DNA from: Promethearchaeota archaeon
Lineage (GTDB): Archaea; Asgardarchaeota; Lokiarchaeia; Sigyniarchaeales; SOKP01
Direction: 5' to 3'
DNA length: 64,000 nt
Assembly (NCBI GenBank): GCA_030599585.1
Contig: JAUVNS010000012.1
Location: 89,919 to 153,918 of the forward strand
The notes under the pieces are model-generated. The model searched no databases, was not told the DNA's origin, and saw only the letters and a program-made list of their open reading frames with translations. Below are positions 27,988 through 31,706 of this stretch, piece by piece; position 1 is the stretch's first letter; every line of letters starts with the position of its first letter. Both the position numbers and the translations under genes were made by a program.

Positions 27988-28107
27988 TAATATTCTATAC
28001 AATATCAGAATCTAATAATCTTTTTTCATCCTTCCATAACCTTTTTTTTAAAAAATCCTTATAATTCATATTAATTGCATCAAGGTGAATCTATAATAGG
28101 AAATAAA

Positions 28108-28545
28108 ATGCCTGAAGAAGATTTAAAAAAAGTAATCCGCGATTTTTTAGACAAAAGAAAGATACTCGTACTCTGTACTTGTTTAGATAATACGCCTCGC
28201 GCAACTCCTATGGATTTTTACATGGATAAGAAATCTAATGATTTTAATATATATGTAGGACCTGCTCCTGGGAGAAAAGTAAAAAATATCGAAGAAAATC
28301 CAAATGTCAGTATTGGAATATATACGCCAATGGACACGGGTAAAATACAGGGTATGCAAATTACCGCATCCGGGAAAGAAAGGCTGATCTTTTTAAAGGA
28401 AGGGGATAAAGAATTTGATAAGGTTCAAAAAATAGTGCGGGGAAAAAGAAAGCTTCTCTTGAAGATCATTCCAGAGAAAATTGAACTTCTCGATTATGAT
28501 TTTATAAAAGATGGATATTCACGCCTTCAATATTTAGATTTCTAG
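28108..28545 (+). CDS. Pyridoxamine 5'-phosphate oxidase-like (split-barrel flavin-binding) protein
   Basis: LCTC.DNTPRATP and RKVKNIEENPNVSI motifs; ATG at 28108 preferred to TTG at 28075. Confidence 0.78.
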   Translation: MPEEDLKKVIRDFLDKRKILVLCTCLDNTPRATPMDFYMDKKSNDFNIYVGPAPGRKVKNIEENPNVSIGIYTPMDTGKIQGMQITASGKERLIFLKEGDKEFDKVQKIVRGKRKLLLKIIPEKIELLDYDFIKDGYSRLQYLDF

Positions 28546-28631
28546 TAAAATTAAATCTCTATTTAGAATTTCTTAAGAGTAAAAGCACAGTTATATTTTT
28601 AAGCCCTATTTACTTTATTTTATGTATAATT

Positions 28632-28783
28632 ACGGATGTGGATGTTATGAATGAAAAATCTAAATTTTTAGTTTCAACACCAAATTTCATAGAGATCATA
28701 TCCGAGATTATTATTCAGTAAAATCCTTTTCCTCGTGAAACGATTTTCGAAAGAAATATCCACATCCCGTTTCACAGAGAAAA
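28632..28783 (+). promoter_or_regulatory. Structured ileS leader (candidate attenuator) with alternative stems
   Basis: Stem A pairs 28632-28646 with 28755-28770; stem B pairs 28727-28742 with 28768-28783. TATA-like TTTTTAAG lies about 30 nt upstream of 28632. Confidence 0.6.
28647..28721 (+). CDS. Ile-rich leader peptide MNEKSKFLVSTPNFIEIISEIIIQ upstream of ileS
   Basis: 24 codons; six Ile codons (ATA, ATC, ATA, ATT, ATT, ATT) in the last ten; purine-rich GGATGTGGA just upstream. Confidence 0.65.
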   Translation: MNEKSKFLVSTPNFIEIISEIIIQ

Positions 28784-28850
28784 TTAGAACATTTATACGC
28801 TTTTAAACTAAAATTTCAGATAGATACAATAACAACATGAGGTTAGTTAT

Positions 28851-31706
28851 ATGTCATATATTAAAAAGGAAGAAGAAATAATTCAGTTTTGGAAAGAAAA
28901 CAAGATATTCGAAAAGAGCGTCGAGTATAGATCAAAAAACCCCCCGTACATATTTTACGATGGGCCTCCATTTGCCACAGGGTTACCCCATTATGGAAAC
29001 ATATTAAGTATCGTAACAAAAGATGTATTTCCAAGGTATTGGACAATGAAAAATCATCGTTGCGAAAGAAGATGGGGATGGGATTGTCACGGGCTCCCTA
29101 TAGAAAGCATTTGCGAACGAGAATTAAAAATAAAGCAGAAGAACGAAATTTACGAGATGGGATTAAGTGAATTTAACGAATTCTGCAGATCGAAAGTTCT
29201 ATGGTACGCCAATGAATGGAAAAATACCGTTGATCGGATGGGTAAATGGATAGAATTTGATAATGCTTATAAAACAATGGATAATTCGTATATGGAAACG
29301 ATTTGGTTTATATTTAAGAAGATATATGATGAAGGATATGTCTATAAAGGCAAAAAAGTTCTTCTCTATTGCCCTAGATGCGAAACCCCACTCTCAAATT
29401 TTGAAATATCTATGGATAACAGCTACAAGGACATTACCGAAAAATCTGTTATAGCGAAGTTCAAATTAAAGGGTGATTCAAATACATATTTACTTGCTTG
29501 GAGTACCACGCCATGGACATTAATTGGTAATATAGCGTTAGCAGTAAATAGTAAACTTGATTATGTAAAAGTTAGGGTTGGAGAGGAATTTTTGATTTTA
29601 ATAAAAACTAGAATAGATTTAATAGGCGAGAATTATGAAATAGTTGATAATTTTAAAGGAGAATCTTTACTCAATAAACCTTATGAACCGTTGTATCAAG
29701 TTTCTGTTGATACTGAGAAAGTAGGTCATTTTATTATTGATGGTGGCGAAGAAGTCTTATCAGATGAAGGTACGGGAATAGTACATATGGCTATTTATGG
29801 TGAATTTGATTACAAAATGATTAATAAGTACGATATGCCGATAATCCAGCATATTGATAAACAAGGTAAATTATCTGACGGTCCTGATGACTGGAAAGGT
29901 ATGTGGTTTAAAGATGTCGATAAAGTGGTACTAAATGATTTAAATAGTCGAAATCTTTTATTTGATACAGAAGACTACACTCACTCTTATCCTTTCTGTT
30001 ATAGATGTGATACACCTCTAATTTATAACGCACTTGATGCTTGGTTCATAGAAATTCAGAAAATAAAGGCTAGGCTTCTAAAAACTAATGAGCGAATCAA
30101 TTGGTATCCTAAAGAAGTTACGAAAAGATACAAATACATAATAGAAACTGCTCCTGATTGGTGTATATCGAGAAATCGATTTTGGGCTACAGCGATGCCA
30201 ATATGGACATGCGTGCATTGTAATACAATTAAAGTAATCGGTTCTGTAAATGAACTTCAAGCCCACGCAATCGAGATTGTTGATGATAATCTAGATCTAC
30301 ACAGGCACATCGTAGATGATATTCATTTGAAATGTTCTGAATGTGGAAATATAATGAACCGCATACCTGAAGTTTTTGATTGCTGGCTCGAATCGGGCTC
30401 AATGCCGTTTGCTGCAAAGCATTACCCTTTTGAGAATGTTGACTGGTTCAAGCACAATTTCCCTAGTGATTTTGTGTCAGAATATATTGGACAAACGAGG
30501 GCTTGGTTCTACTACATGCATGTAATCTCAATTCTGATGTTTGATGAGATCCCGTTTAAAAATGTCGTAGTAAATGGTAATATACTCGCTGAAGATGGAG
30601 CCAAAATGTCAAAATCAAAAAAAAATTTTGCTGAACCGTCTCTAATAATAGGAAGATACGGAGCTGACGCCTTAAGGATTTATCTTATGGCGTCCCAGTT
30701 AATGCGAGCAAAAGATTTAAACTTTAAAGAAGAAAGCGTTAAGCAAATCTATCGAAGATTTAATTTACTATTGTTTAATGTTCTAAAATTTTATTCTTTA
30801 TTTGAGATTAACAATTTATCTGTAGAAAACTCCAATTCAGAGCATATTTTAGATAAGTGGATTCTAAATTTAGTGAATGATCTTACTCTGGATGTGACTC
30901 AGCGATTAGATGACTACGATACTCAGGAAACAAGCAAGTTAATTATTAATTTCGTTGAAGAATTATCAACTTGGTACATCAAAAATAGTAGAACTAGATT
31001 TAAAAGCGAAATAATAAGCGAAAAGCTAGCAGCGATGAATACCTTGACATACGTACTTCACGTTTTGTCGAAAATCATAGCACCAATAACGCCCTTCATT
31101 TCTGAAATGATATATCAGAAATTGAAGGAAAGAAATTTAGTAAAATACGAATCCGTGCATTTAGACCTATGGCCAGATTTTGATCAAAGTTTATCCGTTC
31201 CAAATCTACAGACTAAAATGAATTTAACTAAGGAAATAGTTCAAAAATCTTTGGAATTAAGAGAAAAGGTCAAAATACCTTTACGACAACCGCTGAAAAA
31301 GATTGTGCTGAAAGGAGTAAGTTTGGACGATGAATTTTTAGATTTAATTAAAAAAGCATTAAATGTGAAAGAAGTTTTAATAAAAAATGAAGATGCATCT
31401 GAATTAACTGTAGAATTGGATACAGAAATCACGAGAGAACTGAAACTAGAAGGAATAGCTAGAAACTTGATAAGAAATATTAATAATCACAGGAAGAAAA
31501 TGAAGCTATCGACGAAAAATAGAATAAGATTATATCTAAATGCTGAAGACGATGATATTTTAGAAGCCATATCTAAACACCAAAACTACATCAAAAAAAT
31601 GGTACAAGCAGAAGTAATTTTTAATAAGATAGATAATAATAGAGATATTAAGACATTTAAAGTAAACCAAAGCGAAGTTTCAACTTATCTCGAGGTAATA
31701 ACTTAA
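28851..31706 (+). CDS. ileS: Isoleucine--tRNA ligase (type 2 / eukaryote-like)
   Basis: FYDGPPFATGLPHYGN, GWDCHGLPIE, WSTTPWTL, GTGIVH, DWCISRNRFW and KMSKS motifs. Confidence 0.95.
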   Translation: MSYIKKEEEIIQFWKENKIFEKSVEYRSKNPPYIFYDGPPFATGLPHYGNILSIVTKDVFPRYWTMKNHRCERRWGWDCHGLPIESICERELKIKQKNEIYEMGLSEFNEFCRSKVLWYANEWKNTVDRMGKWIEFDNAYKTMDNSYMETIWFIFKKIYDEGYVYKGKKVLLYCPRCETPLSNFEISMDNSYKDITEKSVIAKFKLKGDSNTYLLAWSTTPWTLIGNIALAVNSKLDYVKVRVGEEFLILIKTRIDLIGENYEIVDNFKGESLLNKPYEPLYQVSVDTEKVGHFIIDGGEEVLSDEGTGIVHMAIYGEFDYKMINKYDMPIIQHIDKQGKLSDGPDDWKGMWFKDVDKVVLNDLNSRNLLFDTEDYTHSYPFCYRCDTPLIYNALDAWFIEIQKIKARLLKTNERINWYPKEVTKRYKYIIETAPDWCISRNRFWATAMPIWTCVHCNTIKVIGSVNELQAHAIEIVDDNLDLHRHIVDDIHLKCSECGNIMNRIPEVFDCWLESGSMPFAAKHYPFENVDWFKHNFPSDFVSEYIGQTRAWFYYMHVISILMFDEIPFKNVVVNGNILAEDGAKMSKSKKNFAEPSLIIGRYGADALRIYLMASQLMRAKDLNFKEESVKQIYRRFNLLLFNVLKFYSLFEINNLSVENSNSEHILDKWILNLVNDLTLDVTQRLDDYDTQETSKLIINFVEELSTWYIKNSRTRFKSEIISEKLAAMNTLTYVLHVLSKIIAPITPFISEMIYQKLKERNLVKYESVHLDLWPDFDQSLSVPNLQTKMNLTKEIVQKSLELREKVKIPLRQPLKKIVLKGVSLDDEFLDLIKKALNVKEVLIKNEDASELTVELDTEITRELKLEGIARNLIRNINNHRKKMKLSTKNRIRLYLNAEDDDILEAISKHQNYIKKMVQAEVIFNKIDNNRDIKTFKVNQSEVSTYLEVIT

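Follow-up and report, generated by a model that had tools for sequence, protein, structure and literature searches.

A conserved Ile-codon leader with alternative RNA pairings, a candidate gauge of tRNA-Ile charging, upstream of an accessory isoleucyl-tRNA synthetase gene in Asgard archaea

Can a translating ribosome serve as a gauge of tRNA charging for an aminoacyl-tRNA synthetase (aaRS) gene in an archaeon? The question is raised by a short Ile-rich ORF that precedes an isoleucyl-tRNA synthetase (IleRS) gene in a 64,000-nt stretch of DNA from an Asgard archaeon (Promethearchaeota archaeon, assembly GCA_030599585.1, contig JAUVNS010000012.1, positions 89,919 to 153,918; hereafter the window), for which an initial annotation, made from the letters alone, had proposed ribosome-dependent attenuation. 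Leader-peptide attenuation is a textbook bacterial mechanism, which needs coupled transcription and translation. The analysis described here points to a cis-acting leader, dedicated to the synthetase gene, on which a translating ribosome probably gauges charged tRNA-Ile; the direction and the route of the output are put forward with far lower confidence.

A short Ile-rich ORF upstream of an accessory IleRS gene

The upstream ORF (uORF) extends from an ATG at 28647 to a TAA at 28719-28721 (28647-28721 of the window, plus strand), and its 24 codons plus stop encode MNEKSKFLVSTPNFIEIISEIIIQ. As the initial annotation had reported, Ile makes up six of the last ten codons; the 3´ end reads ATT ATT ATT CAG TAA, with the putative regulatory run ATT ATT ATT (28707-28715, plus strand) one codon ahead of the stop. 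The uORF ends 129 nt before the ATG of the IleRS gene at 28851, in line with the ~130 nt given before. The uORF and all of the RNA arms described below are present in 31/31 orthologous loci from two genera, on the same strand and 126-174 nt upstream of the synthetase gene, such that the uORF, the Ile run and the stems, proposed from a single sequence, are indeed conserved in relatives. The frame is kept open at all 31 loci and the remaining two frames at none (0/31). Counted from the homologous start, which is ATG (GTG in one locus), the uORF has 20-24 codons, mostly 24. The ATT ATT ATT run is invariant at the nucleotide level at all loci; in the sister genus the uORF mostly ends IIII-stop and in the genus of the window III-x-stop. 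The N-terminal residues K-F-L of the peptide are common to both genera and the codon changes are synonymous, with the conserved Leu at position 8 encoded by TTA, TTG or CTG. The uORF is conserved and looks translated, translation being predicted from the conservation of the frame.

Across the 31 loci, Ile accounts for 62% of the last ten uORF residues, Val for 2% and Leu for 0%, and the last five codons comprise 95 ATT, 15 ATC and no ATA. Genome-wide, ATA makes up 33% of the Ile codons, and it is the most frequent Ile codon elsewhere within the same uORFs. Since it lacks ATA, the run uses solely codons read by tRNA-Ile(GAU). The Ile density is also beyond that of random short ORFs, a doubt that the initial annotation had itself raised: among the 11,259 ATG-started ORFs of 20-30 codons in the whole genome, six have at least six Ile in the last ten codons, and two of the 11,259 combine this with III within the last five. 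A chance origin of the Ile run is excluded. No uninterrupted membrane-spanning hydrophobic stretch (~18 residues) was found in the ileS2 leader peptides, every tail variant of which contains E, S, K or T, and the peptide appears too polar for a membrane helix or for a small hydrophobic membrane peptide or type I toxin.

The gene downstream (28851-31706, plus strand) encodes an IleRS of 951 aa, with a TIGR00392 match of 806 bits and the HYGN and KMSKS motifs. It had been taken for the ileS of this organism, a designation that has to be revised. The genome encodes a second IleRS of 1062 aa (contig C34), which is 34% identical to the product of the window's gene and resembles the IleRS seen across the relatives searched. 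Judged by these comparisons, the window's gene is an accessory paralog, here called ileS2, and not the housekeeping ileS. Orthologs of ileS2 (64-87% identity) occur in 8/41 other genomes of the window's genus and in 29/54 of the sister genus, and none were found among ~300 other sampled genomes of the phylum; the nearest homologs beyond the clade (56-60% identity) are on Micrarchaeia-labelled and other small-genome contigs. A Shine-Dalgarno (SD)-like GAGGT precedes ileS2 (28839-28843, plus strand), and a GGTG/GGAG motif is kept 7-8 nt before the start in relatives.

Upstream of the leader, the loci show five synteny groups with unrelated DNA, from which it follows that the leader travels with ileS2. 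A search of 135 family genomes with a motif pattern composed of arm A (see below), the ATT run and A' gave one match per genome in 35 of them, every match lying beside ileS2 (for one of the 35, at a contig edge, ileS2 is cut off there), and zero matches were obtained in family genomes without ileS2 or with a reversed control pattern. An nhmmer profile of the leader detected a single copy in the window's genome. The leader is also found at two more distant metagenomic loci, where IleRS2 is 63-65% identical. It is absent upstream of a 59% IleRS2 homolog, and no leader was found at IleRS2 homologs further removed (56-60% identity; from Micrarchaeia, from a 1-Mb contig of bacterial appearance and from other sources). 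A pattern scan of metagenomes returned at least 120 loci; among the matches listed, nine were true leaders according to nhmmer and the rest were chance matches, such that little diversity was added. In the window, the gene just upstream of the leader (28075-28545) matches PPOX-class F420-dependent oxidoreductases only weakly (E = 1e-5), and it is the upstream neighbour solely in the window's closest relatives.

Alternative pairings of the leader RNA

The pairings of the leader center on arm A (ACGGATGTGGAT, 28632-28643, plus strand), an SD-like segment 4 nt 5´ of the uORF start, whose GGATGTGG core is invariant in the 31 loci and whose flanking positions vary in concert with two alternative partners. 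One of these partners, A'' (TCATATCCG, 28696-28704, plus strand), lies within the uORF directly 5´ of the Ile run and was absent from the two-stem description of the initial annotation. The long-range partner, A' (ATCCACATCCCGT, 28758-28770, plus strand), is 50-60 nt 3´ of the uORF stop, inside the loop of a hairpin (hairpin B) formed by B5' (28727-28742, plus strand), which begins 6 nt past the stop, and B3' (28768-28783, plus strand). For the window, stem A joins 28632-28643 to 28758-28770 by a perfect 10-bp core (GGATGTGGAT/ATCCACATCC) and ACG/CGT over a one-base bulge, with a duplex energy of -19.8 kcal/mol; the pairing claimed before, there given as about 15 bp, is real and covaries. Stem B (28727-28742 with 28768-28783) is as claimed and likewise covaries, with 8 bp, two mismatches flanking a G-U, and 5 bp in the window (-15.8 kcal/mol) and up to 15 bp in the sister genus. 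The CGT common to A' and B3' makes for an overlap of 3 nt. With the segments in the order A-B5'-A'-B3' and no linker left, A:A' and B:B' cannot both pair in full, as had been recognized at the outset.

Support for each helix was counted in an alignment of the 31 sequences from the two genera (A2). For A:A'' (columns 50-59 with 114-123), 95% of the cells are paired and three pairs show compensatory change; for B5':B3' (columns 147-161 with 191-205), the values are 92% and six pairs; and for A:A' (columns 50-60 with 181-193), 98% and three pairs, the compensatory changes coming mostly from few lineage splits, with few independent events (~four for arm A). When the partners were slid by one to three columns, all of the controls gave 27-59% paired. 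Columns 192-193 covary with arm A (50-51) and also with B5' (159-160). The base of arm A is AC in one genus and GT in the other, the same difference is seen in B5', and there are matching changes in A'', A' and B3'; at locus L037, a G-to-A change in arm A has C-to-T counterparts in both A'' and A'. Pairing at the level of RNA is favored over a DNA palindrome because G-U pairs are conserved.

RNAalifold, given 15 sister-genus sequences, predicted A:A'' together with B:B' unaided, and A:A'' is also present in the minimum-free-energy fold of the window. When a 30-nt ribosome footprint centered on the Ile run was masked as single-stranded, the predicted fold became A:A'; in this model, a ribosome that stalls at the Ile codons would lie over A:A''. 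For the window, A:A'' plus B:B' are together predicted to be more stable than A:A', which in turn is predicted to be more stable than A:A'' alone, a calculated balance that is suited to a switch. The window region taken alone does not fold better than shuffled sequences (z = -1.6 and -1.4 for the two strands), and a permissive Rfam search of 28000-29400 found no T-box and returned a single, meaningless lncRNA match. The case for an RNA element accordingly rests on the comparison between loci.

Promoters, proposed switch and output

Two conserved blocks upstream of the uORF are candidate promoters. Block 1 (GTTATATTTTTAAG, 28590-28603, plus strand) is BRE/TATA-like, lies ~52 nt before the uORF start and corresponds to the near-invariant columns 7-20 of A2; it is conserved across the two genera amid otherwise unrelated upstream flanks. 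Block 1 is likely the promoter of the leader transcript, and a start ~25 nt downstream would include arm A. Block 2 (beginning TTTACTTTATTTTA, 28610-28625, plus strand) is TATA-like, lies ~28 nt before the uORF ATG and is conserved in A2, with the same geometry as the TATA box of the apparently leaderless leuS2 leaders described below; as a promoter it could render the uORF leaderless and leave arm A outside the transcript. We favor the distal start, from block 1, given the covariation of arm A. A third block, TATA-like or T-rich, is located between the leader and ileS2 (28791-28800, plus strand), with an equivalent T-rich block in the sister genus (T7 and T5 runs). This conserved block sits 55-75 nt before ileS2 and could be either the gene's own promoter or an oligo-T termination site. 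For 268 well-defined gene starts, no positional signal for a promoter motif or a TATA-to-start distance was found, k-mer enrichment being dominated by A/T runs. Matches to sigma-70 promoters were set aside as irrelevant for archaea.

In the model that we favor, the two folds would report on the supply of charged tRNA-Ile. When Ile-tRNA is plentiful, the ribosome would finish the uORF and depart, and A:A'' and hairpin B, the predicted thermodynamic ground state, would form. When Ile-tRNA(GAU) is scarce, the ribosome would stall on the Ile run and cover A''; in the sister genus it would also extend over the base of hairpin B. Arm A, freed of A'', would then be captured by A' as it emerges from the polymerase, which would keep hairpin B from closing. 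Since neither end state leaves arm A unpaired, reading of the gauge would probably be mainly a one-time, co-transcriptional event. The step to which we give the least weight is that the A:A' state raises ileS2 expression, such that a back-up synthetase would be turned on once charging of tRNA-Ile fails. This might occur by read-through at a point 3´ of hairpin B where the RNA is otherwise terminated or processed, in a factor-dependent or oligo-U-dependent manner.

Two other output routes were tried and rejected. A scan for terminators found no hairpin-plus-U terminator between the uORF and ileS2, and the bacterial route of this type was dropped; the sequence 3´ of hairpin B is A-rich, and a run of at least five T between the uORF and ileS2 is absent from most loci of the window's genus, the window included. 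The second route, unmasking of the ileS2 ribosome-binding site, was dropped with the finding that the predicted SD access is unchanged: the mean unpaired probability of the SD and start region was 0.45 for the free and 0.46 for the stalled state (31 loci, masked footprint), and for B5', B3' and A' in duplex with the start region of ileS2, the mean z values relative to shuffles were -0.7, 0.3 and 0.0. An anti-SD role for A', as a mimic that pairs with the ileS2 SD sequence, seemed possible by eye at some loci of the window's genus; the sister genus offered no such pairing, and the idea was rejected. For the ribosome-dependent attenuator of the initial annotation, this means that the sensor half stands, with a conserved uORF, an Ile run and exclusive covarying helices, but that neither a bacterial-type terminator nor predicted SD sequestration was found.

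The same ribosome-read switch could also have an opposite or different output; for example, ileS2 might be repressed on starvation through the loading of a termination factor or nuclease on single-stranded B arms. Variants of this explanation are control of leader RNA stability alone and an sRNA released from the leader. All of these would draw on the same support for the sensor architecture, since the sequence sets no polarity and no terminator or SD sequestration ties either state to ON or OFF. However, to our knowledge, low charging leads to induction in every characterized aaRS leader system (T-box, pheM), and a spare synthetase that is repressed at the moment when charging fails has no obvious use. 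We consider these outputs, taken jointly, unlikely.

A parallel Leu-run leader, competing readings and known systems

The initial annotation had proposed to look for cognate-codon uORFs at other aaRS genes, and a screen of the window's own genome found one. A 30-codon uORF ending VLLQALLLSLL precedes an accessory leucyl-tRNA synthetase (LeuRS) gene, leuS2, by 156 nt (genome G000, contig C21, ~128704-128914 for the Leu-run uORF plus hairpin, minus strand; loci L063/L064). The Leu-run uORF is present in 18/18 orthologous leuS2 loci, and Leu contributes 58% and Ile 0% of its final ten residues. The hairpin directly 3´ of the uORF shows compensatory changes in 6/10 pairs and has a loop with an invariant CTTTTTCTTTT, and a TATA box is located ~26 nt before the uORF ATG, a distance that suggests that the uORF is leaderless. 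The accessory LeuRS paralog occurs in 18/61 sampled family genomes, and LeuRS1, which has no such leader, in 56/61. No cognate-run uORF was found at the housekeeping IleRS1, ValRS and LeuRS1 genes. This reciprocal case, a Leu run with LeuRS, supports amino-acid specificity of the leaders. A genome-wide search for uORFs that precede long ORFs and encode a homopolymer run at the C-terminus gave ~400 candidates; 20 of the downstream genes were annotated and all were non-cognate, and one Thr-run candidate preceded the PheRS beta chain. The candidates other than those at ileS2 and leuS2 are noise, and these two alone are cognate.

Additional copies of the Leu-type family are found in the same genome. 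One, with an Ile/Leu/Val tail, precedes an FrhB/FdhB-like gene and an AAA ATPase gene (contig C20, 394649-394869, minus strand) and is conserved in relatives, where its tails are rich in I, V and L. On contig C40, two copies stand in tandem (~200810-200960 and 201412-201593, plus strand), followed by ORFs of 64 and 59 residues, and a truncated duplicate of the leuS2 leader lies at 132261-132344 of contig C21 (minus strand). The genes downstream of these family members (FrhB-like, 59-64-aa ORFs) have no known link to branched-chain amino acids. Some of the tails are hydrophobic enough for membrane helices, and some Leu-type members may be small protein genes.

These copies bear on the reading in which the ileS2 uORF is an independent gene, with a functional 24-residue peptide or trans-acting transcript, ileS2 being expressed from its own promoter and the linkage of the two reflecting co-inheritance. 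Related Leu-type members that precede unrelated genes and carry membrane-helix-like tails would be in keeping with such a gene, as would the TATA-like or T-rich block that follows the leader ahead of ileS2 and the K-F-L N-terminus maintained across genera through synonymous changes. Against this, the adjacency to ileS2 is strict (same strand, 126-174 nt, 31/31) despite five upstream contexts, and a solitary leader was never found; the E, S, K and T residues inside the tail make it too polar, as judged from composition, for a membrane helix; a constraint on the peptide leaves unexplained why the Ile run is fixed at the nucleotide level and avoids ATA; and the match of Ile with IleRS and, reciprocally, of Leu with LeuRS would have to be a coincidence. 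We regard an independent gene as quite unlikely. We consider it highly improbable that the ORF is incidental and that the leader works as a structured RNA recognized by a protein, a tRNA or a small ligand, in the manner of a riboswitch or T-box, for while the helices are conserved and covarying and the cores GGATGTGG and CCACATCC are invariant, as in a binding site, there is no Rfam family match (T-box included), the frame, length, start codon and terminal Ile run are conserved with the other frames closed, and one helix partner falls exactly beneath the modeled footprint of the stalled ribosome.

The preferred reading, a cis-acting gauge of charged tRNA-Ile read by the ribosome, may have a wider reach, though here we are more doubtful than convinced. 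Leaders of the Ile type at ileS2, along with those of the Leu type and of a mixed Ile/Val/Leu type at leuS2 and further genes, could together form an Asgard family regulon of ribosome-read branched-chain gauges, turning on spare, possibly inhibitor-resistant synthetases via an archaea-specific output (aCPSF1/FttA-like factor-dependent termination, or RNA processing gated by the post-stop hairpin). If true, such a regulon would give Archaea their first defined attenuation mechanism and would show directly that transcription-translation coupling is used for regulation there.

Ribosome-mediated attenuators of bacteria include trpL, ilvL and thrL of E. coli and, for an aaRS operon, pheM-pheST. Like these, the ileS2 leader has a short, translated-looking ORF with a run of cognate codons and a target in the metabolism of the same amino acid, and two segments, one overlapping the ORF and one downstream, compete for the same partner, with the position of the ribosome predicted to select the fold. 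Unlike these, it belongs to an archaeal host, does not have a GC-rich hairpin plus U-tract terminator and is linked to an accessory aaRS paralog; moreover, the common partner, arm A, is 5´ of the ORF, where it doubles as the SD-like site, and the Ile run comes right at the 3´ end of the ORF. By its sequence features the sensor resembles a bacterial leader-peptide attenuator, but we do not assign the element to that family because the terminator that defines it was not found.

The T-boxes of actinobacterial ileS genes sequester the SD sequence (Seliverstov et al., 2005, PMC1262725). Like the leader, they precede an IleRS gene, and, as proposed here for the leader, they use alternative RNA structures to sense the charging of tRNA-Ile in cis, but a T-box has no translated ORF and itself binds the uncharged tRNA. 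In mycobacteria, leaderless poly-Cys uORFs act as attenuators (bioRxiv 10.1101/834739). As for these uORFs and for the translational attenuation of ermC and cat, we propose that stalling on a short uORF remodels the mRNA, and the Leu-type leaders of this genome look leaderless, as do the mycobacterial Cys uORFs. In those systems, however, the stalled ribosome exposes a downstream ribosome-binding site, whereas here the predicted SD access is constant and the gene is 126-174 nt away. The Rho-dependent tnaC-tnaA leader of E. coli has its critical codons at the 3´ end of the leader ORF, as does the ileS2 leader, and in both a ribosome by the stop would shield RNA downstream; tnaC differs in that it senses free tryptophan through the nascent peptide and not tRNA charging. 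The factor-dependent terminator of archaea, aCPSF1/FttA, offers a possible tnaC-like analogy, and no recognizable termination-factor site was found at the leader.

A literature search returned bacterial attenuators, ileS T-boxes and mycobacterial Cys uORFs and found no published leader-peptide gauge in archaea. A conserved, covarying leader with cognate codons in the closest prokaryotic relatives of eukaryotes would show the archaeal ribosome as a metabolite sensor. The leader would also offer a concrete, testable system for the control of archaeal RNA polymerase or mRNA fate without bacterial-type terminators, and it suggests that duplicated Asgard aaRS genes are conditionally expressed back-ups and not redundant copies.

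Several features of ileS2, its homologs and the tRNA genes were noted in passing. ARAGORN detected 17-21 tRNA genes in the genome, which is rated 100% complete, a census too incomplete to list the tRNA-Ile species; many of the tRNA genes are probably intron-interrupted or otherwise atypical. At 13/22 sister-genus loci (L038, L039, L042-L045, L047, L048 and L053-L057), ATT (ATA in one) replaces the ATG of ileS2, 7 nt after the GGTG SD motif, and an in-frame GTG is present three codons upstream, consistent with either a near-cognate AUU start or a shifted start. On one metagenomic contig (L062), a tRNA-Ile gene with the anticodon UAU (1002-1078) is located ~120 nt upstream of a 60%-identical IleRS2 homolog, which hints that this IleRS type may accompany unusual AUA decoding in some lineages. 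Finally, on a 1.07-Mb contig (L060, 1-4041), a 58%-identical IleRS2 homolog is preceded, at a distance of 3 nt, by a HisRS gene and followed by a sigma-70 region-4 gene, a bacterial-looking context that points to horizontal spread of this IleRS type.
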